Virus record (IMG/VR): IMGVR_UViG_3300032218_001507
Location: 1-61,850 of that record
Direction: 5' to 3' (one strand)
DNA length: 61,850 nucleotides
Source of the DNA: a virus
Taxonomy: Duplodnaviria > Caudoviricetes
Shown: positions 5,124 through 19,077 of the stretch, piece by piece
Layout: the number at the start of each line of letters is the position of its first letter
Numbering within the stretch: the stretch's first letter is position 1
Made by a program: the position numbers and the translations under genes
Notes under the pieces: generated by a model
Told to the model about the DNA's origin: nothing
Database searches by the model: none
What the model saw: only the letters and a program-made list of their open reading frames with translations

Positions 5124-7142
5124 TTACTGATTGTCTTTAATCAACTTAACTTCACAAGCATCCGTGGTGCAGTAAGCCTCACCAATAGCGTCAGAAGCCA
5201 TACCAGCATAAACACCCGCAAGGTCAATTGGGAACAACTTCATAGTTCCTTCTTTCTCGTACTCTTCTTCAGTAATCTGGGTGTAAGGCATCTGTGGATA
5301 AACCATGTTACCCATAGGTAAGAAACTAATCGTCTTTAACTGTCCGTCATACATATGTAAGACTGACTCAATAGACTCTGCTTCCTTCTCAGCGTCAAAA
5401 GTTACTGTTACTGAGACTGAGTTATCTGACCAGTATCTCTGAGCTGCAGCTGCAAGAGCAACCTTTTCATAAATTGAAACTTCTTTTTCGGCTCTTTTTG
5501 CATCTGTCTTTACCGGAAAGAATACAACACTCGTAGTTTCGGGCGATTCTGCTGCAGGTTCTACACGATAGTTAGCCATCTTAAAAAGCGGAAGCATAGG
5601 GTCATTGTTTGCAAAACGGATTGCTCTGTTAAAGAACTTTCCACCTGAAGCCCAGTGAACCCCTGGAGATTCACCAGCAAGAATAGAAACTGTGCCTGAA
5701 GGCTTAACAGTAGTCGTCTTTATGGACTCACGAATACCTAACCACTCTGAGTAGTTGATGTCATAGTTCTTTATGACCTTATAACCTTCATCCATCCATG
5801 TGCGAAGCACAGACCAACCATTATTATCTGCAAAGTTTGCTACACCAGAGATTGAAGTTCCAATACGACGGTTGCGTTGCATGATGGCGTTGGTCTCTTG
5901 CCAATGTGTAGGAATAAGAGTTACAGTCTTGGCATAAAGATAAGCAAACTTCAATGTTCTTTTGAAGTCCTCAAGGTTTTCATGGCGATTCAAATAAGTT
6001 TCAACCAAAGTACAACACTCGTAAGATTCAAGAGACTGTTCGGCACAAGGGTTGTACCCAGCAATACGCCAGTCTTTGTTGTTGATTGGGTCAGCCAACC
6101 GACCGTATTGACGAGAAACATCCATCCAAATAACGCCAGGCTCACCATTAAGAGCAATGCCGTCAATGATTGGAGTAAGGTTTTGACCTACTGCTACTTC
6201 AACAGAGTTGTTAGACATCCATCCGTAAGCCATGCGGTCAGGGTTTTTTTCATAGTTCTTTAAGTTAAGGAAACCTTCATCGTCTAAGCGGCCCATAAGC
6301 AACTCAGCACTGCGGCGTACATTTCCAGAAACAACACAGACACCAATCATGTTGCCAATATCGGCAATATCTCTACGAGTAAGTTTCTCTCCAGCTCTAC
6401 CGGTAAACATAGAGACGATATGGTCGTGTAACTTCTTTAAGGGTTCGTGTCCTGCGGCTGTTCCACCAAAGGTTTTGATTGGTACCCCTGCTGGGCGGAT
6501 TTCTTGGTAGCCAAATAATGGAGTCTTCGTATCTGGCTTGAGGTAAGAATTGAGGAGGGCGGCTGTTGATTCAACCCAGCCTTCTCGGGTATCTGGGATG
6601 ATGTATTCATAACTTTCTTTTGGCTCATAGATATTAAAGTCCTTGTCTGCTCCTTTGTCATCAAAGCCAACGCCCACTCCAAGCATTGAGGCTTCCATGA
6701 GGAAAGCGAATGGTTTTGCTGGGTCGGTTTTAGTCATTGACCCCGTTGAAACAAAAGCACAATTTTGTAGGGCTGCTGAGTTACGTTGTTCATTGACAAG
6801 AGGTGTACCCATAACCCAAAGACCTCGTCCAGGCGGAGTCCACTTTAAGTTAAAAAGACGGTCAAAAGCTTCTTTAGCCGAGGCTGCTGCTTTAGCATCT
6901 GACCATGGAAGGCGGTTGAGTTTAGCGTGGTCTTTCTGCAAGGAGTACATGCCATTGATGACCCTCTGGCAGACATCTACCCATGTTTCTTTAGTACCAT
7001 CTGGCTTCAGACGAGAATAGGTACGGAGAAAAGTAATCTCCCCTACCGAGTTTCCCGCAGCATCTTGATACCCAAAAGGAGCCTTCTTGCCCTTATACGA
7101 TTCTACGAATTCTCCTGCTAGTTCAAAAGAAAACAAACCCAC
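5124..7142 (-). CDS. nrdJ: Class II (adenosylcobalamin-dependent) monomeric ribonucleoside-triphosphate reductase
   Basis: RTYSR, PPGRGLW, LQNCAF, NPCAEQ, TTVKPSGTVS and C-terminal CTTDAC shuttle cysteines. Confidence 0.93.
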   Translation of the reverse strand: MGLFSFELAGEFVESYKGKKAPFGYQDAAGNSVGEITFLRTYSRLKPDGTKETWVDVCQRVINGMYSLQKDHAKLNRLPWSDAKAAASAKEAFDRLFNLKWTPPGRGLWVMGTPLVNEQRNSAALQNCAFVSTGSMTKTDPAKPFAFLMEASMLGVGVGFDDKGADKDFNIYEPKESYEYIIPDTREGWVESTAALLNSYLKPDTKTPLFGYQEIRPAGVPIKTFGGTAAGHEPLKKLHDHIVSMFTGRAGEKLTRRDIADIGNMIGVCVVSGNVRRSAELLMGRLDDEGFLNLKNYEKNPDRMAYGWMSNNSVEVAVGQNLTPIIDGIALNGEPGVIWMDVSRQYGRLADPINNKDWRIAGYNPCAEQSLESYECCTLVETYLNRHENLEDFKRTLKFAYLYAKTVTLIPTHWQETNAIMQRNRRIGTSISGVANFADNNGWSVLRTWMDEGYKVIKNYDINYSEWLGIRESIKTTTVKPSGTVSILAGESPGVHWASGGKFFNRAIRFANNDPMLPLFKMANYRVEPAAESPETTSVVFFPVKTDAKRAEKEVSIYEKVALAAAAQRYWSDNSVSVTVTFDAEKEAESIESVLHMYDGQLKTISFLPMGNMVYPQMPYTQITEEEYEKEGTMKLFPIDLAGVYAGMASDAIGEAYCTTDACEVKLIKDNQ

Positions 7143-7316: not shown

Positions 7317-8822
7317 TTAATCTTCTATGGAGGATTGAATAATCTTTGTAACTTGTTCTTCTTTAAGGGCTTCAGGCAATTCACGAAGAGCCTGAGCCTT
7401 GTCTCCAAAGATAGCCGAAAGCACTCCACCCGATGATTGACGGCTGGCTGTAATCTGAATAAACTCTTTATCAGAGTTCATATCATTGACTCGCTCAACC
7501 ATTTTTATTAAACGGTCAACTTCTTGAGATACATTAGGGTCTGCGTATCCGCCGTTCATTTCTTCAGCAAAACGCATAAAAGCAACTCTTTGACCCTGCA
7601 TTTCAATCATTGAAGTCATCAAAGCCTTTAATTGTTCTTTAGTCTTGACCTCAATTGGAAGGTTAAAAGCACAGGTATTGGAAGGCTTGAAAGCGGGACA
7701 GTTGGCGGCAACAAAGCAAGTATCACACTGCCTTAAAGAAGATTGCTGGGTTTGAACAACAGGGATGTCCATCAAAATATCTTTGCCGTTTTCATCTCTA
7801 TCAACAACGGTTTTCATCTTGTACCCAAAAACAGGGAGGTTTTGAACCTCATTTGGGTCTCGCTGAATCAATTCTGAAGAAGAATTTTTCCGCACCTCAG
7901 GAGCACTGTTATCAGAAGGGTACCCTCCTAGTTCCATACCTAACCCTGTGTATAGGGTGTCACTGTTATCAGATACTTGGGGTTCTTTACCACCATCAAT
8001 AATGTGAAAGTTAGGCGTTTTTTTGTCCATGGATATCTCCAACTGTAAGTATGACCAGACCGCAACTCTAGTTGCTTCTAGTGTGTTATCTTGGCTAAAC
8101 CCCAAATAGTCCAGTCCAGCCTTCTCCACAATAGTCTTGTAACGAGGTCTGGCTTGGGCTTTCATGCGCTTGGGATAGCGTTTAATTTGAGTGCCATCCC
8201 AAACAATTGTTTCTCCTCGGCGCATAGGAGATAGCCATGACAATGTGCTTGCTGTGGCAAATGGTATCTGTCTGAGGTTGTCTGGCTTGGCACAAGCAAG
8301 GGCATGGTAGGAAGTGCCAAACTGTCTCTGATAACCCCTTGTAAGGGCTGCTAGGCTGGTTACAGACTCAATCTCATCGTTGGGTATGACCACGTTTTTA
8401 TAAGTCTCAGACATGGCTTTAAGCGCTGGTAAACCGTACTCTTCATGCCATACAACCCAGAACTTTGGGTCATGCTCATAAAACGGTCGTTGGGCTTCTA
8501 CCCAATCTTTGCCCAAAACCAATGAATCAAACTCCATGTAAGCTGAAGCTCGTTCACTGTTATTAACCAAAAACTCTTGATAATCGGCTGCTAAAGAAGT
8601 TAACTCTTCTTTTGAGAGACCTGCCTTCTCAGCTTGAGCTGCGCCGGACTCAATGATTACCTTTGTAGCTGCATCATAGTGTTCACTGATTAGCCATGTT
8701 TTAGTCTTAGGCAATCCTCTTTTGCGCAAAGTCCAATAGTTGAGTCCCATTGACTCAACTTTCTGTCCATCTAAAAGGGTGCGGTTAGAGCCCACTTCAG
8801 CACCGCTGAAGATAATTTTCAT
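7317..8822 (-). CDS. Divergent TGT/DpdA-like TIM-barrel protein fused to a 4-Cys domain and helical C-terminus
   Basis: Motif order IESGA, MEFD, VVWH, YHALAC, PFATASTLSW...RRGE parallels LDSGAF, xLD, PVWH, HLLG, PFxSxDSSSW...RxG of phage TGT-like proteins; CDTC-x5-C-x8-C. Confidence 0.5.
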   Translation of the reverse strand: MKIIFSGAEVGSNRTLLDGQKVESMGLNYWTLRKRGLPKTKTWLISEHYDAATKVIIESGAAQAEKAGLSKEELTSLAADYQEFLVNNSERASAYMEFDSLVLGKDWVEAQRPFYEHDPKFWVVWHEEYGLPALKAMSETYKNVVIPNDEIESVTSLAALTRGYQRQFGTSYHALACAKPDNLRQIPFATASTLSWLSPMRRGETIVWDGTQIKRYPKRMKAQARPRYKTIVEKAGLDYLGFSQDNTLEATRVAVWSYLQLEISMDKKTPNFHIIDGGKEPQVSDNSDTLYTGLGMELGGYPSDNSAPEVRKNSSSELIQRDPNEVQNLPVFGYKMKTVVDRDENGKDILMDIPVVQTQQSSLRQCDTCFVAANCPAFKPSNTCAFNLPIEVKTKEQLKALMTSMIEMQGQRVAFMRFAEEMNGGYADPNVSQEVDRLIKMVERVNDMNSDKEFIQITASRQSSGGVLSAIFGDKAQALRELPEALKEEQVTKIIQSSIED

Positions 8823-9310
8823 TAGTCAGACCAGAGTTCGGCTTCTTTTGGTTTCTGTGCTTGTTCTGACCTAGCCATGTTTACACGGTTAACAGATGCT
8901 TCTATATCTGACCAGCGTCTAACTTTCTTAGGTGCATCTGGACGGTTTTCAACAACAGCAAATCCTGGATGGCTAAAAAGGATTGTTGGCACTCGCTGTT
9001 CTTCAAATACCCAAGCACACATAGTAGGGTCGGCATCTACATACATTTCAATGGGTGCCCTGGAACGGGACATTGTGAACTGTCTCTTTTTTAAGTCTTC
9101 GCCTTCCAGTGCAAAAGAAAAATCAATCAAATCGTCATAGTTAATAATTCCGTGCGATTGCAACCATTGTTTAGCGTCTTCTTCTTTGCGAGAAGTCATA
9201 ATGGCTACACGGTTGTTAATGTTTAGGGCGTAATAAAGTGCCACTCCTGCACGGATAGGTTCTCCTGACTCCGAACTGAGTACGCCGTCTAGTGATACGA
9301 GTATGTTCAT
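8822..9310 (-). CDS. HAD-superfamily-like protein with degenerate motif I
   Basis: ILVSLDGVL (DxDG with first Asp replaced by Ser), IMTSR motif II, K, YVDAD motif IV. Confidence 0.6.
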   Translation of the reverse strand: MNILVSLDGVLSSESGEPIRAGVALYYALNINNRVAIMTSRKEEDAKQWLQSHGIINYDDLIDFSFALEGEDLKKRQFTMSRSRAPIEMYVDADPTMCAWVFEEQRVPTILFSHPGFAVVENRPDAPKKVRRWSDIEASVNRVNMARSEQAQKPKEAELWSD

Positions 9311-9857
9311 AGTTATCCGTTAGAGTCTACGGGAGCCTTTACATCCGCTGAAGTTACGTACTTGTTGTAAGCAGCAACCCAATCTTTAGCAATAGCCTTT
9401 TGTGCATCAGCCAATGAAATCTTGGCAGAACAAATCATGTTTTTTAGTTTAGTCTCAACAACATCTTTCTTACGGGCATTGCTACCAGAGTATGGCTGAG
9501 GCCATAGGTTTTTTGGGTCAGTAGGACTACCGCCAAGTTGCAAGGAGATAAGGTGGTCTTCTTCGTAACCTGATGCTGCTGCTCCGTAGAGAGCAACAAA
9601 TGATTTGTAAGTAGTTGCAAGTTGAGTTGCCTTTAACTTGTTTGTATAAGTAATTGTTGGGCGTACTTTTGAAGTCCAGTTTGCTTTGCATACGTTTTGG
9701 CTAATGTTTGCTTGATTGACTGTAGGGTTAATAACGCCAGGCGTTACTAATACGTTTGGCTTTTCCCAATCAGGCCCTGTAGTAGCAGCCATCGCTCCAC
9801 CAGCAATTAATGCTAGAAAAAATCCAATTACTATCCCTTTTGTTTTCATAGTTATCC
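9306..9857. repeat. 13-bp direct repeat ttcatagttatcc (9306-9318 and 9845-9857) flanking the secreted HNH-like gene
   Basis: Exact match read from the sequence. Confidence 0.85.
9313..9849 (-). CDS. Secreted protein with HNH-like motif
   Basis: Signal peptide; TPG, EEDHLISLQLGG...NLWPQ, KDxxE...C...AQxAIAxDW. Confidence 0.7.
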   Translation of the reverse strand: MKTKGIVIGFFLALIAGGAMAATTGPDWEKPNVLVTPGVINPTVNQANISQNVCKANWTSKVRPTITYTNKLKATQLATTYKSFVALYGAAASGYEEDHLISLQLGGSPTDPKNLWPQPYSGSNARKKDVVETKLKNMICSAKISLADAQKAIAKDWVAAYNKYVTSADVKAPVDSNG

Positions 9858-10784
9858 TTTTGCTCTGTATGTTGCTGCTCGTCTAATTAGGGTCTGAGTA
9901 TCTGGCAGTTCAACGCCATATGTGGTTTCAGCCTGTTGCGCTTTGTATGCTGACCAGTACTCAGACAGTTTACGTAGGGCAGGTACAGTTCCGTATTTCT
10001 TTCCAGCCTGCCATCTATAGTTGTAGAAGTCTGCATAACCTTGTCCATCGGCTTTAAAAGCAAACTTACGTGCGCCATGGATGTCATCATAAAGAGCTGA
10101 GGCTTGCGTTAGAGCAGCGTGTAGTTGTGCTTCTGCATTACGACGTGCTGGGTCATTTTGTGCACCATGCACATCAGTCAATGCTTTGGTGTAACGTGTA
10201 ACAATCTGTGTTGCTACTGATAAATCACGTTTTGCGACTTCATCCCATACACGGTTTTCTGGAGCAGTGGTTTGTGCTGGGTGCACTGTCCATTCGTTAT
10301 GGGTAAGGTCGTATGCTGCATATGGATTAATAGAACGTATATCTGTTGCACCTGGGTTTACATAAAACGTGACTTCAAAACCATTCCAATTTTCGGTATC
10401 TGGTTGTAAGTGGTTACGGAAATCTTCATTGAGCATACGGCTAATTTCTACATCACCAAGTCCTACATACTCTGGATGTGCTTTGCGAAATTGAATATAA
10501 TTAACGCCAATCAAAACGTCTAAATCTCCTGGCTCACGAGCAGCAGACCATTGATAGGAAACTCCAGAACCTGCAATCCATACATGACACCATAAATCTG
10601 GATGCCGATAGTTCTCATTTAAAAATCCAAAAAGAAGTTGCAAGATGCCATTACGTACCCATCCCTTTATTGCTGTTCCTGAAAATAAACGAGGGTCTAG
10701 CTCTTGTTCAGGCGCAGAAAAATAGGAAGTAGGTGACCCTTGAATATGGACAGGGTTTGAGTTACTTCCTAAGTTTGTAAACAT
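9852..10784 (-). CDS. Pol-beta-superfamily nucleotidyltransferase
   Basis: hhAGS-x-x-SYQW...GDLDVLI motif; third acidic residue in FEVTFYV. Confidence 0.75.
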   Translation of the reverse strand: MFTNLGSNSNPVHIQGSPTSYFSAPEQELDPRLFSGTAIKGWVRNGILQLLFGFLNENYRHPDLWCHVWIAGSGVSYQWSAAREPGDLDVLIGVNYIQFRKAHPEYVGLGDVEISRMLNEDFRNHLQPDTENWNGFEVTFYVNPGATDIRSINPYAAYDLTHNEWTVHPAQTTAPENRVWDEVAKRDLSVATQIVTRYTKALTDVHGAQNDPARRNAEAQLHAALTQASALYDDIHGARKFAFKADGQGYADFYNYRWQAGKKYGTVPALRKLSEYWSAYKAQQAETTYGVELPDTQTLIRRAATYRAKG

Positions 10785-10788
10785 ACCC

Positions 10789-11058
10789 TTAGTTTAAGGG
10801 CGTATCTATGCCTCTATCGCTTAAAGCATCAATAATCTTTGCTCGTTTCTCAGCATCTGGGTCTTTTGGCTGTAGAGCGTGGATAACAGTGCGTGCAATA
10901 CGGTCAGCAAGAAGTTGGCTTTCAATGTCTGAAACCAATTCTTTGCTTGTTTGATAGATGTCAAAATTAGTTGCTGGACGTTGAACGTCTTTGGTGATAA
11001 TTTCAGTTGCAATGCTTCCATCATCATTAATAAACACTGCATATGCTGCTTGAGTCAT
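10789..11058 (-). CDS. Hypothetical protein
   Basis: TAATG-coupled ORF. Confidence 0.7.
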   Translation of the reverse strand: MTQAAYAVFINDDGSIATEIITKDVQRPATNFDIYQTSKELVSDIESQLLADRIARTVIHALQPKDPDAEKRAKIIDALSDRGIDTPLN

Positions 11059-11606
11059 TAGTTCATTCCTAACAGTTTTTGTTTACGCTGGTTTACAGCA
11101 ATTGATACGGGACAAAAATTACATAGGTAAGTTTTTGGCCCTGCTTCATCTTGATAACGTGCCATACCTTCTGCTTTACGTTCTTTTGCCGTATTGGGGA
11201 TTAACAGTTTTTCCTTGTGCTGCCAGTCAACACAGCCTTCTTTTGGCTTGTTGTGTTGTTGGTAGCATTTCATTGCGTCTTCTAAAAACATGGAACGAGA
11301 ATCGTAAAAGGTATCGTCAACCTCTGCCAATCCTTTAGAGCCTCCGCCTTTAATCTGACGAATAATTTCTTTTTTTGACTCTAGTTTTGCCCATGCTCGT
11401 AGTGGCAAAACAAACAACTTACCTTTGTGTGGCTCACCTGATGGAAAAACATGTGATTCACAAGCAATTGTTAACAAGTGGTCTTGTTCTGGGGCGCCAT
11501 CATATGGCGGAAGTTCGTCCAGTGAATCGCAAACAAGACAGTACAACAACCGAAACATTGGTTCGTTGTCCATCTTTTTTTCGCCCAAAATAGGTACGTT
11601 ACTCAT
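11058..11606 (-). CDS. Hypothetical Cys/His-rich (Zn-binding) protein
   Basis: CLVC, H..H, CYQQH...C, CNFCP; aggag SD. Confidence 0.75.
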   Translation of the reverse strand: MSNVPILGEKKMDNEPMFRLLYCLVCDSLDELPPYDGAPEQDHLLTIACESHVFPSGEPHKGKLFVLPLRAWAKLESKKEIIRQIKGGGSKGLAEVDDTFYDSRSMFLEDAMKCYQQHNKPKEGCVDWQHKEKLLIPNTAKERKAEGMARYQDEAGPKTYLCNFCPVSIAVNQRKQKLLGMN

Positions 11607-11641: not shown

Positions 11642-12022
11642 TTATGCGTTCCAAAGACCTTGTTCTGTTGCATCAGCCTTGGCTTTTTTCTTAGCTGCAC
11701 GGGCTTCCATCTTGTTTTCACGCTCACTCTTTACGCCAATTGCACGGCGAACAATAGACTGATGCTTACCAGTAGATGGACTGTGTGAAACGTCTGGATA
11801 AATCCATCCACCTTCGTGGTGAACAGCAATTGGAGTGTTGTAAGACTTGACGTGGTAGTCAGTAGTGTTTGCTACGTCTGAAAGTTGTTTTGAGAATTGA
11901 GTCCCATTCAACCAACCGTGAGATGATGGTGCGCCTTTGACGCCCTCCATGTTAGAGCCTTTAAACTCTTCTCGTCCTTGGATATGTGGACCAGCGTTTG
12001 TATTTGAAACTCTTTTAGCCAT
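11642..12022 (-). CDS. Conserved-looking phage hypothetical protein
   Basis: SYNTPIA...W...SPSTGKHQS pattern seen in small phage proteins. Confidence 0.7.
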   Translation of the reverse strand: MAKRVSNTNAGPHIQGREEFKGSNMEGVKGAPSSHGWLNGTQFSKQLSDVANTTDYHVKSYNTPIAVHHEGGWIYPDVSHSPSTGKHQSIVRRAIGVKSERENKMEARAAKKKAKADATEQGLWNA

Positions 12023-12195
12023 TATCGTCCCATCGCTTTACTATGCCCTTTACGAGCGCATGATTTGCATACTGTTCCTGCAAAATAACCCATTGGGTCT
12101 TCATGACCACAAGTGGCTTTCATTTTAGACCAATCAGGACTGGTTGGTTTGCGGTTTGCATCACCCGACATATCTGGAACAGATGTTTTAGCCAT
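12022..12195 (-). CDS. Small Zn-binding hypothetical protein (57 aa, not in ORF track)
   Basis: MAKTSVPDMSGD...CGH...CKSC...MGR*; TAATG overlap with the next gene; fills the gap. Confidence 0.65.
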   Translation of the reverse strand: MAKTSVPDMSGDANRKPTSPDWSKMKATCGHEDPMGYFAGTVCKSCARKGHSKAMGR

Positions 12196-12197
12196 GA

Positions 12198-12404
12198 TTA
12201 CTTACCTGGGTTTACCTTATTTGGATATTCAGATGTAATAAAACCATAACCGTAAAAAGGATGCAATGATTGGCGATTGTCTAGCGTCGCTTCATCTCCA
12301 AGACCAGGAATAACTTCTGTATCTGGGCGAGCCTTACGATACTTGCCGTCTGTTGCGCCTTCATTCAATGAGTTATTCATTGAGCGAGATGAGTTAACTG
12401 CCAT
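12198..12404 (-). CDS. Hypothetical protein
   Basis: TAATG-coupled ORF. Confidence 0.7.
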   Translation of the reverse strand: MAVNSSRSMNNSLNEGATDGKYRKARPDTEVIPGLGDEATLDNRQSLHPFYGYGFITSEYPNKVNPGK

Positions 12405-12955
12405 TAGTTTCCTGCTTTCCTGTTGCGACCTTCGTCAGCACGGCGGATATTCTCCGTATGAGCTGCCTTGATGATGTTAAGTCTAGTATTTATTGCTTTA
12501 TGGGTCATGGCTAACAGCTCATCACTTCCCTTTCCAGGGTTAGTTACGAAGTGTTTTGCCTGTCCTAAAGTGGTGTGAAGTTCTGGGGACATCTTTCCAA
12601 TATTGGCATGAATAGCATTAAATGCTTCGTGGGCTGCATGGTGCTCTGGGGAGCCAATTGGGTGTTGAGCCATCGCTGATAGATGAGTACGGGCTGCGTC
12701 TACTGCTGCTTTGATATGTGGGTAACTTCCAGATGAGGCACCTTTGGAAATTGGTTTTTCACCCATACCCATAAGACCTTCAGGTTTTGGTTCTGGTTTA
12801 GGCCCCGCTATTGGAAGAGTGGTGGTTCGTGCTGCTTTCTTTTCTTCTGCAGTTGTAGCCCTAATCTTTCCGTTTTCTCCACGAGTAACGGAAGGAACTG
12901 CAACTTTACCCTCTGCTGTTAACTTTTTACCAGTACGAGTTTTTTTGGTTGCCAC
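12404..12955 (-). CDS. Hypothetical basic, His/Ala-rich protein
   Basis: GTG start; contiguous operon packing. Confidence 0.7.
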   Translation of the reverse strand: MATKKTRTGKKLTAEGKVAVPSVTRGENGKIRATTAEEKKAARTTTLPIAGPKPEPKPEGLMGMGEKPISKGASSGSYPHIKAAVDAARTHLSAMAQHPIGSPEHHAAHEAFNAIHANIGKMSPELHTTLGQAKHFVTNPGKGSDELLAMTHKAINTRLNIIKAAHTENIRRADEGRNRKAGN

Positions 12956-12957
12956 AA

Positions 12958-13158
12958 TTAGACCATTTTTCTTTTAACACGGTCAGACATCTTTTGGGCG
13001 TAACAGTTTTGGCACATACCTTTGCTGTACAACGCTTCTACTGGGTTAAGAACAACGCCACATGCTGGGCATGGATATGAACCTTTATATTTGGTTGCAT
13101 TTTCCGCAATCTGTCGTGCTTGTAATTCCATTGTTTCTGCGCCATCGCCATCAAACAT
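12958..13158 (-). CDS. Small Zn-finger protein
   Basis: ATG at 13158 after aagga SD; CPAC...CQNC. Confidence 0.7.
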   Translation of the reverse strand: MFDGDGAETMELQARQIAENATKYKGSYPCPACGVVLNPVEALYSKGMCQNCYAQKMSDRVKRKMV

Positions 13159-13723
13159 TGCGGTTCCTTTCGCCGTGTGCCTTTGCTTGACCCATACCTG
13201 TGTCATAATCGGCAACTTCTGGTGTACTAAATGCTGTGTATTTTTTGCCTGAGTTTGCTTCTTTTGCAACGCTACGGTCAGCCCCCATAAATGCTACAGC
13301 TGGACGACCTTGTCGTGAAACTTTCCAAGTTTTAGGTTTGTAAGCTTCATTCCATTGAACGTGAGACAACGCTCGTAATCCGCCTTTTTGATACATGTCT
13401 GGCAACTTTGGGTCAAATGCTGATGCATGAGTTGCTTTTGAAATTAAAATTGAATGCTCTGCTGCACGGCGTGCTACATCTTCATATTTAGCATCCGGAT
13501 GTTTAAATACAGAATTAAGTTCACCTTCTTGGTTTACTGCATACCCAGCTAATCCATCAGGTGTAGTAAACATACGCATCTTTTTATAATCAGCAACTTT
13601 GTGTACATCTACCGCAGCACCGTTAGGGTTTGCTTTTTTTGCACGCTGAATAAACGCTTTAAAATGTCCAGCTTCTTTTGGCGAATACTCTACAAAATGA
13701 GGAAAGTTATCTTCTTTAGACAT
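13151..13723 (-). CDS. Putative GNAT-fold acetyltransferase-like protein
   Basis: DGxAGYAV...GELNSVF...AFDxxLPxxYxxxG...WNxxYxPxxW...PxVxFM resembles GNAT-like modules of phage polyvalent proteins. Confidence 0.45.
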   Translation of the reverse strand: MSKEDNFPHFVEYSPKEAGHFKAFIQRAKKANPNGAAVDVHKVADYKKMRMFTTPDGLAGYAVNQEGELNSVFKHPDAKYEDVARRAAEHSILISKATHASAFDPKLPDMYQKGGLRALSHVQWNEAYKPKTWKVSRQGRPAVAFMGADRSVAKEANSGKKYTAFSTPEVADYDTGMGQAKAHGERNRNV

Positions 13724-14085
13724 TACACACCGCCTAAATCATTGCGGGCAGTGCCACCGTACCCTGCTGGGCTACCAGAAAACCAAGAAATACGTGGCTC
13801 ATGGTATTGACGGTCAACTGTGACTACATCTTCAATTCCGGGTGAGCGACGGTCTCCGTAACCATACCGTTCTGGGAACAAACGAATCTGTGGCAGTGGT
13901 GGACGCACCATTGCTTGAATATCTTTTCCGGGAATAGTAGCAACCATTAGGGCCTGTTGTGTTAGGCGCTCCATATTGGTTGCCCATGGGCCCAAGTATG
14001 ACCAACGTTTTGCAACCTGGTCAGGTTCTATCGGTGCTCGCCATGGCTTGGTATGGTCGTAAACTCCGTCAAATTTTTGTGTCAC
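13723..14085 (-). CDS. Hypothetical protein
   Basis: GTG start; contiguous packing. Confidence 0.7.
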   Translation of the reverse strand: MTQKFDGVYDHTKPWRAPIEPDQVAKRWSYLGPWATNMERLTQQALMVATIPGKDIQAMVRPPLPQIRLFPERYGYGDRRSPGIEDVVTVDRQYHEPRISWFSGSPAGYGGTARNDLGGV

Positions 14086-14086
14086 T

Positions 14087-14620
14087 TTATCTCCAAGCAG
14101 GTTTCAAATAAGCCAACATTGCTTGACGACGTTCATTGATTTGTCCTGGCTCTGTAGCAATAGTGTTTGCTTTGCCGTCGTTGACAAGGTGAGGAGCAGG
14201 AACCAAACTAACTTCTGGTGCAGCACGCATTGTTTGATAGACATTGGCGCCATTAATATTAACTCGTGTTGCTTTCATTTGACGTTCAATACCTGACATG
14301 TCATTCATATCCATAGGCCAAAAATACATAGATGGCTCAATGCGCTCACCTTTGTGTACGCCACGTTGATATGCTTTTTGATTGACACGACTTTTGATTG
14401 AGTCTAATAAGCGGTCATCACGACGTGACCGAATAGTTCCTAAATAACCATCTGGATATTCTGCAGATGGAACACGACCAACACCGATGCGAGACGCATC
14501 CATGGAGTCACGTGCTACAGGAGTTCCTGCACCACCTTGGTTGTTATAGCCATAAAGACCATTGCCACCAATAGACTGCCAGTTTTGTTGAGGAGAATAA
14601 TTATTTACTCCACCAGCCAT
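14087..14620 (-). CDS. Hypothetical protein
   Basis: ggaggt SD; TAATG coupling. Confidence 0.75.
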   Translation of the reverse strand: MAGGVNNYSPQQNWQSIGGNGLYGYNNQGGAGTPVARDSMDASRIGVGRVPSAEYPDGYLGTIRSRRDDRLLDSIKSRVNQKAYQRGVHKGERIEPSMYFWPMDMNDMSGIERQMKATRVNINGANVYQTMRAAPEVSLVPAPHLVNDGKANTIATEPGQINERRQAMLAYLKPAWR

Positions 14621-14868
14621 TACGCACCTCCAAAACTAGCACCTTTGTCAGATGATGGTGGTTGTATTGTTGGTGTATCATCAAAATTTAAGGTTGTACT
14701 ACGGGTCTTTGAAGAGTAAGAAGCAGGAGAAGTTCCTTCTTCATTAGACTTCCAAGATGTTCTTTGAGCTATAGAACCTGTTGTTGATTTACTCAACGAC
14801 AAAGGAGCTTTTACTCTGTGCTGTGAGGCACTAAGAACAGAACCGTAGTCAGAACCTGAATCAGTCAT
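14620..14868 (-). CDS. Hypothetical Ser/Thr-rich protein
   Basis: TAATG coupling on both sides. Confidence 0.65.
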   Translation of the reverse strand: MTDSGSDYGSVLSASQHRVKAPLSLSKSTTGSIAQRTSWKSNEEGTSPASYSSKTRSTTLNFDDTPTIQPPSSDKGASFGGA

Positions 14869-15314
14869 TAGAGAGAGTTTTTCATCCCATTATTAAAATT
14901 GCCTGCTTGACCATTTGCTGCTGGAACAGTTTTTGCATTTGCCATTGTTGGACCAGCTTCTGGTGCAACAGTTGGGTATGAAGCAGTGACACGGTAACGT
15001 GCGCCCATACGCTCTGATGCTGCTGCGTTATTAACAAGCATGTTGCTTCTATTGGCTTTGCCACCAGCAGTTGGGTCTGCTGCTTGTGTATTTTTCTTAG
15101 CAATTTTAGTACCACGTGATGGTGCAGCAGTTGTTGCTTTTGCAGCATCCATGCCCATGTAACGACGTGCGCTAGTCTTATGTTCTGCAGAAGCAATTAC
15201 TTCTTCTGGTGTCATGTGATTTCTTGTCATTGATTTACCTGCTGCTTCTAGGTGATTTGAGGGTGCGCCCATGCGACGACGCATTGCGTGACCCATTGAT
15301 GTCCATGCTGCCAT
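14868..15314 (-). CDS. Hypothetical Ala/Met-rich basic protein
   Basis: aaggag SD; upstream cgTATCCT -10-like element. Confidence 0.75.
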   Translation of the reverse strand: MAAWTSMGHAMRRRMGAPSNHLEAAGKSMTRNHMTPEEVIASAEHKTSARRYMGMDAAKATTAAPSRGTKIAKKNTQAADPTAGGKANRSNMLVNNAAASERMGARYRVTASYPTVAPEAGPTMANAKTVPAANGQAGNFNNGMKNSL

Positions 15315-15352
15315 GATGACTCCTTGCGTTTGGTATAAAGGATACGGTTGTT

Positions 15353-15646
15353 TTAGCTTGCTGTAATGTGAAAAACAATGGCGGAAATTTCGCCGTCTCT
15401 TGATTCAATGGTGGTAAATCCTGGTTTATCGGTCAAATCCATGCCACGAGGTGCCACATATCCACGGGCAATAGCGATGGCTTTAACTGCTTGATTTACT
15501 GCTCCTGCACCTACAGCACGCAACTTTACTTCGTGTTTATCATAGATTGCATGGGCAATTGCGGAAGCAACGCTTTGGGGATTGGAACTTGCGCTTACTC
15601 GTAGAAATGGCTCTTCAGTTGTTTTAACGTCTGGTGTGTCGCTCAA
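15353..15646 (-). CDS. spoVS: SpoVS-family (Alba-like) nucleic-acid-binding protein
   Basis: LRVSASSNPQSVASAIA...AVGAGAVNQAVKAIAIARGYVAP.G.DL..KPGF, the SpoVS signature; TTG start after aagga. Confidence 0.92.
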   Translation of the reverse strand: MSDTPDVKTTEEPFLRVSASSNPQSVASAIAHAIYDKHEVKLRAVGAGAVNQAVKAIAIARGYVAPRGMDLTDKPGFTTIESRDGEISAIVFHITAS

Positions 15647-15699
15647 TTGTTAGTCCTTTGGTTCGGTTTGGTGTGCCACTCCTAAACCAAAGGATACGT

Positions 15700-16290
15700 T
15701 TAAAACTTAGAGGCGTCTCTGTATTTGGGGTCTGACATTTGAATAGCTACTGCCTTTTCAACTTCATTAATTGAAAATTTTCCTACAAGGCGTGCTAAAG
15801 CGTAAGAATCGGCAGCATTATCGTCATTAAACTCCACACCCCAACGCTTGTAAATTTGAAGGAGCATTTCTTGTTTTTTGGCATTGCCTTTGCCTGCTGC
15901 GTACTTTTTAAGGGTCATGGGAGGAACCTTTAATGGGTAACGACGATGGTCTCCTTCATCAAAAAAGTCATAAATTGCCAACCGAACTGTTGCCGACAAC
16001 TCACCAAGAACAAGTGCTGCTTGACTTGCTAATACTGTTCCTTCCATTGCTATATCCACAATATTCATTTCAACTTCCATCTCAACATAGTTGAGAGTGT
16101 CAATTAACCATTGACGAATGTCTACTAATCTTTCAATACCAAAATAAGGAGATTTATAAACCCACGTTAAATGTTTTTGCGGGTCATTTAACGACAAAAC
16201 AGTTAATGCAAATCCTGTAAGTGATTGGTCAATTCCAATCGTTACATCACCTTTTGTATTTAATCCACCATCAAGTAGTTTTGTTGGCAC
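15700..16290 (-). CDS. ruvC: RuvC-like Holliday junction resolvase
   Basis: IGIDQSLTGF, AMEG, LKKYAAGKGNAKK, DNAADSYALA. Confidence 0.85.
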   Translation of the reverse strand: MPTKLLDGGLNTKGDVTIGIDQSLTGFALTVLSLNDPQKHLTWVYKSPYFGIERLVDIRQWLIDTLNYVEMEVEMNIVDIAMEGTVLASQAALVLGELSATVRLAIYDFFDEGDHRRYPLKVPPMTLKKYAAGKGNAKKQEMLLQIYKRWGVEFNDDNAADSYALARLVGKFSINEVEKAVAIQMSDPKYRDASKF

Positions 16291-18744: not shown

Positions 18745-19077
18745 TTAGTCCTTACTGAAAATAAACTCCTTAAGAGTCATTTTCTTAGCGAATGTTTTTT
18801 TGTGCTTACGGATTAAAGCATTACGTTCTCTGTGGCTTAAACCTCCCCAGATTCCATGCGGCTCTTCTCTGTTTATCGCATCCCATAAACAGTCTTTTAA
18901 TACTGGACATGGGTTCTTGCCGTTTTCTCCAAAACAATATGCTTTGGCTTTTTCAGCTATTAACTTGTACTTTTCTTTGTCTCTAGGAGGATAAAAAATA
19001 TCTTCTTCATCCCGGGATTTTGGGGCGGCACCAAAGCAACGAGCTTTAGACCACCAGGGTGTGTCTTCTTCATACAT
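18745..19077 (-). CDS. whiB: WhiB-family Fe-S transcription regulator
   Basis: W...ARC...FYP...AKAYC...CPVxxxC...GIWGGLSxRER. Confidence 0.92.
   Translation of the reverse strand: MYEEDTPWWSKARCFGAAPKSRDEEDIFYPPRDKEKYKLIAEKAKAYCFGENGKNPCPVLKDCLWDAINREEPHGIWGGLSHRERNALIRKHKKTFAKKMTLKEFIFSKD

Follow-up and report, generated by a model that had tools for sequence, protein, structure and literature searches.

A conserved block of genes in the viral contig IMGVR_UViG_3300032218_001507 most likely represents a module that derives from DpdA and has left 7-deazaguanine chemistry, because the nucleophilic aspartate of DpdA is absent from its DpdA-like protein and genes for preQ0 synthesis were not found in its relatives or in their hosts. 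DpdA itself has been proposed as a signature protein of 7-deazaguanine in viral DNA (PMC10516641). The window analyzed here is this single IMG/VR contig at its full length (61,850 bp; CheckV completeness of 62%). The block lies on its minus strand and has a conserved order, starting with a Cys/His-rich protein (g182), a small protein, a Pol-beta-type nucleotidyltransferase (NTase), and a HAD-like protein, with a DpdA-like protein of 501 amino acids (aa) coming last.

The 501-aa protein (7317-8822, minus strand) gave a full-length match to phrog_887 ("queuine tRNA-ribosyltransferase", E 3.1e-58). Its relatives in the phage collection, recovered by tblastn from 9 records, belonged to the BRock group of Streptomyces phages, to Bacillus phage BCD7, and to Bacteroides phage BS162P1, and those of the BRock group were 33-34% identical to it over the full length. 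We then compared an alignment of 88 family sequences with known proteins by hhalign. This alignment matched BCD7 gp021 (99.9%, E 2.7e-32), the DpdA of phage 9g (97.3%, E 2.5e-11), and a 12-sequence DpdA1 alignment including 9g and Iggy (98.8%, E 1.3e-16, 261 columns). The match to DpdA1 paired residues 1-269 of the window protein (8016-8822, minus strand) with residues 6-303 of the 317 residues of 9g. Furthermore, BCD7 gp021 directly matched Iggy and Queuovirinae DpdAs in tblastn, and a DpdA1 hidden Markov model (HMM) matched members of the clade at 1e-4 to 1e-7. No match to the 501-aa protein was obtained in Pfam, NCBIfam, PADLOC (its DpdA model included), or sequence and profile searches of the PDB, and none of the 88 members of the DpdA-like family matched the Pfam TGT model. 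Searching the PDB with 9g DpdA gave nothing significant either. The profile alignments place the 501-aa protein, as a diverged member, in the phage DpdA lineage of DNA guanine transglycosylases (TGT superfamily). This is in agreement with an earlier note on this DNA, which had recognized by eye a DpdA- or TGT-like motif order with altered catalytic positions, and which the profile-profile matches to 9g, DpdA1, and BCD7 gp021 now bear out. The clade is carried by myoviruses of Actinomycetota, and it is large: clustering at 50% leaves 813 representatives, and over 1600 proteins, counted as 90% identity clusters, matched at E <= 1e-5.

The catalytic residues of DpdA have been described for Salmonella (S. 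Montevideo), where D95 is reported to be the general acid/base, D256 the nucleophile, and D130 and H181 the residues that recognize the base; the D95A and D256A variants were inactive, and D95, D130, and D256 were described as invariant across DpdA and TGT (PMC10164549). According to hhalign, D72 of 9g ("DSG") aligns with E58 of the window protein (E58-S-G), and D215 of 9g ("CDSSSW") aligns with S192 (A191-S-T-L-S-W196, "ASTLSW"). Both the nucleophile and the general acid/base Asp of DpdA are thus missing from the window protein. In contrast, five reference DpdA-type proteins (BCD7, BS162P1, phiFN37, 9g, and Iggy) carry Asp at both positions. At position 192, the nucleophile site, the 159 viral sequences that we aligned had Ser (135), Ala (19), Thr (3), or Gly (2) and never Asp. 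Similarly, the 8 copies found in bacterial genomes had Ala, Thr, or Ser (Asp in 0/8), and Asp occurred in a single one of 150 cluster representatives (P0256). Position 58, the acid/base site, was Glu in 88, Asp in 35, His in 15, Asn in 11, Thr in 7, and Tyr in 2, which accounts for 158 of the 159 viral sequences.

Other residues of the DpdA-like domain were strongly conserved among these 159 sequences, namely E9 (157), E97 (159), D99 (144), H173 (158), W196 (159), and E/D204 (158). G203 was conserved in the same range (144-159/159), and H126 is also listed among the conserved residues of the domain. H173 aligned with the His of the DpdA1 "VHG" motif, so that a His and an Asp corresponding to those that recognize the base are found in the window protein, the register of the Asp being uncertain by two residues. 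Judged from the alignments, the protein belongs to the family by descent, yet the two catalytic features that define the family are lacking.

We built a tree of the N-terminal domain, with a midpoint root only and many forks left open, in which six Asp-bearing references were split from a clade of 42 rows (SH-aLRT 99). P0256 (485 aa, 40% identical to the window protein) keeps both "DSG" and the Asp at position 192 ("TTADSGSW") and is nested inside the clade, and the tree therefore needs two changes for the Asp label. The ratios of nonsynonymous to synonymous substitution rates (dN/dS) relative to the window were 0.086 for the DpdA-like protein, 0.102 for the HAD-like protein, 0.115 for the NTase, and 0.073 for g182, these values being rough since dS was near saturation. 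The genes of the module are under strong purifying selection.

A source of 7-deazaguanine was not found either. The earlier note had stated that the window holds no folE or queCDE genes; QueC, the only one of these that we searched for in the window, was indeed not found in this 62% complete contig, and QueC and FolE were both absent from all five relatives rated 100% complete by CheckV, four of which have terminal repeats. QueC was also absent from phage GiJojo, with BCD7 as the positive control. Turning to the hosts, none of five actinobacterial genomes that carry the block matched the Pfam TGT model, and these five gave no credible match to QueC, the one marginal hit being partial (70 of the 210 positions, within a frame of 712 aa). 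Overall, no co-occurrence with genes for the synthesis or salvage of 7-deazaguanine was detected in the relatives and hosts examined. The genomes of all five Asp-bearing references gave a QueC match, that of phiFN37 being weak and below the cut-off, and gp021 of BCD7 directly follows folE, queC, queE, and queD. As a side observation, the 267-aa DpdA of the Fusobacterium phage phiFN37 (L168:5546-7855) is flanked by a ParB-like gene, with a gene for a queuosine-precursor transporter two genes downstream. This arrangement is reminiscent of DpdA/DpdB and would represent a compact salvage type.

DpdA genes without precursor genes have been noted before. Mycobacterium phage Orion (group 3 of Hutinet et al. 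2019) encodes only DpdA in a host without the preQ0 pathway, and no 7-deazaguanine was detected by liquid chromatography-tandem mass spectrometry (LC-MS/MS) (PMC6884629). The same 2019 study proposed that DpdA-only phages may use precursors from the host or from exogenous sources, and its text left the role of such genes open (PMC6884629). Our literature search found no paper on the clade described here. BCD7, BRock, and Streptomyces are not named in the main text of either PMC6884629 or PMC10516641; the supplementary tables of both Hutinet papers may list BCD7 or BRock among phages that encode DpdA.

To describe the neighborhood of the DpdA-like gene, we ran profile HMMs on 161 viral loci, some of which share contigs and 107 of which had at least 4.5 kb of upstream sequence. 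The earlier note had made its proposal depend on the NTase, HAD-like, and DpdA-like genes staying together in related genomes, and they do so in the same order across diverged relatives. A single order (g182, 89-aa protein, NTase, HAD-like, DpdA-like, NrdJ) was seen in 80 close loci. Among the 107 loci with enough upstream sequence, 101 had the NTase, the HAD-like protein, and g182, five had the HAD-like protein and g182 only, and one had none of the three. Being present in 106 of these 107 loci, in GiJojo, and in all eight loci from actinobacterial genomes, g182 is the most tightly co-occurring neighbor besides the HAD-like gene. When the DpdA-like proteins were grouped at 70% identity, 27 of the 34 clusters had all three partners, four lacked the NTase, one had no partner, and two were not judgeable. 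Grouping at 50% identity gave 10 clusters, of which six had all three partners, one was mixed, one lacked the NTase, one had none, and one was not judgeable. GiJojo has the same order, with gp175 as the g182 homologue, gp178 as the NTase, gp179 annotated as "hydrolase", and gp181 annotated as "dpdA-like".

The block was also present on large contigs of eight genomes, all of Actinomycetota (Nonomuraea, Terracoccus, five Streptomyces, and Herbidospora), and seven of these eight loci carry all four genes. In contrast to GiJojo, the NTase, HAD-like, and g182 profiles had no match anywhere in the records of BCD7, BS162P1, and phiFN37. The presence of the partner genes is thus correlated with the replacement of Asp, since they are absent from these three phages, which keep it.

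Besides the DpdA-like domain, the 501-aa protein contains a poorly conserved linker (about residues 270-350) and, after it, a C-terminal four-Cys domain (about residues 351-501; 7320-7772, minus strand). The four cysteines (C366-x2-C369-x5-C375-x8-C384) were invariant in 88/88 family sequences and in 159/159 viral sequences, and the domain may bind Zn or an Fe-S cluster. The domain had no Pfam match. In Bacteroides phage BS162P1 (L169:6013-7645), the barrel (275 aa) and the four-Cys domain (251 aa) are encoded by two adjacent genes, which shows that the Cys domain can be separated from the barrel; a QueC-like match is located immediately upstream of this gene pair. In BCD7 gp021 (L002:7893-10166, 757 aa), about 250 additional residues separate the barrel from the Cys domain, and several metagenomic representatives of 814-865 aa also exist (P0266, P0303, P0332, and P0333).

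We next turn to the partners. The NTase-like protein (310 aa; 9852-10784, minus strand) carries G72-S73 followed by D87-L-D89; in an alignment of 30 homologues, G72, S73, D87, and D89 were invariant and E137 was conserved in at least 90%. On motif alone, this corresponds to the Pol-beta signature (hG[GS], DxD, and a third carboxylate), and the protein is apparently catalytically active. The family also has a strongly conserved C-terminal motif, GxGYxDxxNYRWQAGK. The window protein was 40% identical to GiJojo gp178 (E 2e-61) and had no match in Pfam, PDB, NCBIfam, or PADLOC. Among the 30 members of its alignment, 13 matched Pfam DUF6932 below the cut-off (best E 0.0027), and the fourth-ranked related Atlas cluster had PF01909 on 12% of its members. 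The "nucleotidyltransferase" gp015 of BCD7 was considered as a relative and rejected, as the two proteins were unrelated in our comparison. As for the loci without the NTase, the gene in the corresponding slot of two of them (L084:5944-6921 and L163:9049-9507) encodes a "DGHHR" or "SGHHR" box that looks ParB-like by eye. We dropped this identity, since there was no Pfam match and hhalign against the ParB-like proteins of phiFN37 aligned the box only (0.9% and 0.3%).

The HAD-like protein (162 aa; 8822-9310, minus strand) starts with "VSLDGVL" (S6-L-D8-G-V), with Ser at the position of the motif I nucleophile. The earlier note had pointed out the missing nucleophile, and this holds for the family: position 6 was never Asp in 44 homologues and position 8 was Asp, Glu, or Asn, so that motif I is not preserved. 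The conserved residues of these 44 homologues are limited to G9, V10, G22, W49, L50, P115, and W133, and the protein is probably non-catalytic. It was 23% identical to the "hydrolase" gp179 of GiJojo (E 6e-13), matched phrog_1238 (E 9.5e-4), and had no match in NCBIfam or PADLOC. Leads to the fold itself came from an Atlas feature search, which returned NIF/HAD clusters at 0.90-0.92, and from a PDB profile labeled "PF00702 domain protein" with an insignificant E value of 0.59. In the window, the HAD-like stop codon and the start codon of the DpdA-like gene share a nucleotide (TAATG), and the two genes overlapped by 1, 4, or 8 nucleotides in 99 of 152 loci, a count that is based on the longest open reading frames (ORFs) and includes some contigs twice. 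The two genes are probably coupled in translation.

At the upstream end of the block, g182 (182 aa; 11058-11606, minus strand) has the layout C23-x2-C26, H52, C114, H118, C125, C162-x2-C165-P. C23, C114, C125, C162, C165, and P166 were invariant in 28 homologues, and C26, H52, and H118 were conserved in at least 90% of them. The protein had no match in Pfam, PHROG, NCBIfam, or PADLOC, and is probably a partner that binds metal. Between g182 and the NTase lies the gene for the 89-aa protein (10789-11058, minus strand), which was 42-67% identical in close loci by tblastn, was found by phmmer in some but not all of the diverged loci, and had no match to a Pfam or PHROG family.

The earlier note had described a unit of three genes followed by nrdJ. 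The 310-, 162-, and 501-aa ORFs and nrdJ are all present, and so are the motifs it quoted (GS...DLD, SLDG, ESG, ASTLSW, and CxxC-x5-C-x8-C), which we checked in family alignments. The unit is nevertheless incomplete as described: the conserved g182, two genes upstream of the NTase, was left out, and a fourth ORF of 178 aa (9313-9849, minus strand), between the NTase and HAD-like genes, was missed. The latter encodes a hydrophobic, signal-like N terminus and an HNH-like "EEDHLISLQLGG...NLWPQP" stretch, and it matched Pfam Endonuclea_NS_2 weakly, below the cut-off (E 0.0098). Since only two of the 80 close loci (L039 and L041) have a counterpart, this ORF is an insertion that lies outside the conserved module. 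It was also rejected as the equivalent of GiJojo gp180, which is unrelated and occupies the slot between the HAD-like and DpdA-like genes.

The same note had proposed a leaderless promoter in front of the NTase. The TAAACT-N6-ATG sequence is present (10782-10796, minus strand), its hexamer resembling a -10 element, overlapping the stop codon of the 89-aa gene, and ending 6 nucleotides before the ATG of the NTase. Within the window, TA[AG]ACT-N6-ATG was no more common than expected by chance (2 found versus 1.9 expected). The position is what is conserved: of 128 related loci, 68 have TA[AG]ACT-N6-start in frame at the beginning of the NTase gene, compared with 0/150 at the HAD-like start, 0/159 at the DpdA-like start, and 2/126 at the g182 start. 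Because the motif recurs in frame at the start of the NTase and is nearly absent from the other three gene starts, we hypothesize that TAAACT is a candidate conserved -10 element of a leaderless mRNA.

All long ORFs from 11606 down to 5124 are on the minus strand, and the block is located between replication genes and nrdJ (5124-7142), which encodes a class II (B12-dependent) ribonucleotide reductase (RNR). As the earlier note had it, nrdJ comes after the 501-aa gene, and the gap between them is 174 nucleotides. NrdJ matched phrog_367 (E 6.8e-131) and, in Pfam, RNR_Alpha (PF17975, 1.1e-28), RNR-II_ins_dom (PF21995, 3.5e-12), and PF02867 (7.2e-6), so that the RNR alpha, B12-RNR insertion, and barrel domains of a class II enzyme are all present. 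No NrdJ was found behind the DpdA-like gene in a set of diverged viral loci, in the GiJojo locus, or in the loci from actinobacterial genomes, and nrdJ as a downstream neighbor is confined to the freshwater clade.

The window as a whole has the gene content of a myovirus (tail sheath, baseplate, tape measure, DNA polymerase, and helicases). Its tail sheath is closest to those of the GiJojo/BRock group (44-47% identity), followed by BCD7 (30%), and the whole block is inherited inside one broad myovirus lineage. The actinobacterial genome contigs (L170-L177), one of which measures 7.7 Mb, carry the whole block and four further upstream genes of the window. Relatives of a supposedly virulent lineage are therefore integrated in, or were assembled with, host chromosomes. 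The four ORFs whose order is conserved in these copies lie on the minus strand at 15700-16290, 15353-15646, 14087-14620, and 13723-14085, in the 12022-16290 stretch of the window; searches of the PDB with those at 14087-14620 and 15700-16290 gave nothing significant (best hit RuvC, E 0.27).

As to the host of the window virus, one NTase homologue is labeled "MAG Actinobacteria bacterium" at NCBI, and the GC content of the window is 37-46% in 2-kb windows and about 44% across the module. An ORF of 110 aa (18745-19077, minus strand) has several Cys and an "HGIWGG" motif and is WhiB-like by motif only, which would fit an actinobacterial host. Together with the relatives of the tail sheath, these features point to a low-GC actinobacterium.

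Beyond the observed homology, residue replacements, synteny, purifying selection, and absence of preQ0 genes, we infer a substrate, a chemistry, and a physical complex. The reading that we favor, tentatively and as something short of probable, is that the block encodes a nucleic-acid module, probably directed to guanine in DNA, that left preQ0 exchange and works with a relocated carboxylate or by in-place modification, the NTase being the partner that uses nucleoside triphosphates (NTPs). The substrate of such a module would be guanine or a different purine within a nucleic acid, which is most probably phage DNA. The DpdA-like barrel would still bind the flipped-out base and would either modify it in place or exchange it by means of a relocated carboxylate, for which E204, E9, and E97 are the candidates. 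The NTase would supply an NTP-dependent step, comparable to the ATPase DpdB needed by bacterial DpdA, and the HAD-like and Cys-rich proteins would be non-catalytic or metal-binding subunits. A narrower version, in which a DpdA-derived enzyme with a moved carboxylate (E204, E9, or E97), the NTase, an inactive subunit of HAD type, and a protein that binds metal carry out an undescribed guanine modification other than 7-deazaguanine in phage DNA, we consider rather unlikely. If true, post-replicative DNA modification would gain a new branch, one that operates in hosts without any queuosine pathway.

Several points weigh against a module of this kind. Since P0256 keeps both Asp, the loss of Asp is not universal in the clade. 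The variability of the acid/base position (H, N, T, or Y in 35/159) fits a loss of catalysis as well as a new catalysis, and the location of E9, E97, and E204 at the mouth of the barrel is an assumption. The counterpart of D130 of DpdA is D99 in the hhalign comparison with 9g and E97 in that with DpdA1, a shift of two residues. Furthermore, nothing ties the NTase to DNA, and of the 32 judgeable clusters at 70% identity, four lack the NTase and one lacks any partner. Because a single broad viral lineage has handed the block down, co-occurrence is also weaker evidence of functional coupling; indeed, given the shared tail sheath and the four more syntenic upstream genes, the order of the genes could simply have been inherited, without the block being an operon of a single function.

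The same replacements could instead mean that the DpdA-like and HAD-like proteins are pseudo-enzymes that bind DNA, RNA, or a nucleotide, as a decoy against host defense, a regulator, or a scaffold, in which case the block would have a single enzyme, the NTase. We regard this as unlikely, while giving it real weight. In the 159 viral sequences, Asp does not occur at position 192, and position 58 varies among E, D, H, N, T, and Y; the HAD-like family lacks a nucleophile and conserves hardly any polar residues, and the NTase keeps its full catalytic signature. TGT-fold proteins without the transglycosylase residues do exist, such as the eukaryotic QTRT2 and the archaeal ArcS. However, the retention of E9, E97, D99, H173, and E/D204 in 144-159 of the 159 sequences would be expected of an active site more than of a mere binding surface, as would the dN/dS of 0.086 of the DpdA-like protein. 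The clade-specific acids (E9, E97, and E204) also occur in BCD7 gp021, beside preQ0 genes. That an old myovirus lineage simply kept the order of genes that do not work together is, in our view, quite improbable. This would agree with the tail sheath, which is best matched in GiJojo/BRock (44-47%) and then in BCD7 (30%), with the synteny of four more upstream window genes in the actinobacterial copies, with the variable inserts between the genes of the module (the 178-aa ORF in the window and gp180 in GiJojo), and with the absence of the NTase from 4/32 judgeable clusters. It fits less well with the fact that in most loci the DpdA-like gene begins before the HAD-like gene has ended, and with an order that is kept down to about 30% identity and across GC contents of 0.42 to 0.69. 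Moreover, BCD7 shares the sheath and a DpdA-type gene and keeps both Asp and the preQ0 genes, yet it lacks the NTase, the HAD-like protein, and g182.

We consider it very unlikely that the target is RNA, with the TGT-like protein and the NTase modifying or repairing host or phage tRNA and not DNA. Most of the TGT superfamily acts in tRNA modification, and enzymes of RNA repair are found among the Pol-beta NTases. BRock is reported to encode 29 tRNAs (PMC7453282). The nearest characterized relatives of the 501-aa protein are nevertheless DNA-acting phage DpdAs and not TGTs, the Pfam TGT model matched 0/88 family members, no tRNA gene was found in the window (an incomplete contig), and the hosts that carry the block have no TGT. 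A canonical DpdA, inserting preQ0 or another 7-deazaguanine taken from the host or the environment, would account for the homology to DpdA, for the position of the BCD7 relative directly after folE-queC-queE-queD, and for P0256, which retains both Asp inside the clade; use of host or exogenous precursors by DpdA-only phages has also been proposed (PMC6884629). This is highly improbable, since the nucleophilic Asp is absent while D256A is reported to abolish DpdA activity (PMC10164549), QueC and FolE are absent from five complete relatives, and the five host genomes have no TGT and no credible QueC match. Likewise, the DpdA-only Orion yielded no 7-deazaguanine by LC-MS/MS in a host without the pathway (PMC6884629).

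Whatever the activity, a large branch of the DpdA family, without the nucleophile and without a precursor source, cannot work as a signature of 7-deazaguanine. For the same reasons, the annotation of clade members as "queuine tRNA-ribosyltransferase" or DpdA mispredicts their biology. The clade has cultivable members, the Streptomyces phages BRock and GiJojo, with which the question of the DpdA-only genes of actinophages can be tested directly. Should the module modify DNA, a new chemistry would be added to the arms race between phages and hosts in two ecologically dominant settings, fresh water and soil.

Compared with known systems, the window protein may resemble TGT-type proteins that have lost the catalytic Asp. 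QTRT2, a non-catalytic subunit, and ArcS, which modifies the base in place, both retain the TGT-type fold and the base pocket. They act on tRNA. With phage DpdA1 (9g and Iggy, which insert preQ0 or G+), the window protein shares homology over the whole length of DpdA and the motif order xDSG, PxxH, xHGxxxT, S-x-x-S-x-S-W, G. It differs in that the Asp of "CDSSSW" is replaced by Ser and that of "DSG" by Glu, and in its extra linker and four-Cys domain; 9g and Iggy DpdA adjoin FolE/QueC/QueD/QueE genes, whereas the window protein adjoins the NTase, HAD-like, and Cys-rich proteins. BCD7 gp021 (757 aa, annotated as queuine tRNA-ribosyltransferase) is similar in its match to phrog_887, its two-domain architecture, its four Cys, E9, E97, D99, H173, and E204, and the related phage backbone. 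Unlike the window protein, it keeps D58 and D192 and follows preQ0 genes, in a genome without the NTase, HAD-like, and g182 genes.

The DpdA-type gene of Orion offers a parallel as well, being carried by an actinobacterial phage without preQ0 genes in a host without the pathway (PMC6884629). It belongs to a different subfamily: the DpdA1 profile did not find it, and the tblastn search with the window protein returned no Mycobacterium phage. Finally, bacterial DpdA is reported to depend on an NTP-using partner encoded beside it, the ATPase DpdB (PMC10164549). DpdB is described as an ATPase with similarity to ParB, not as a Pol-beta NTase, and the catalytic Asp is lost from the window protein; even so, the NTase could play the part of DpdB in this module.

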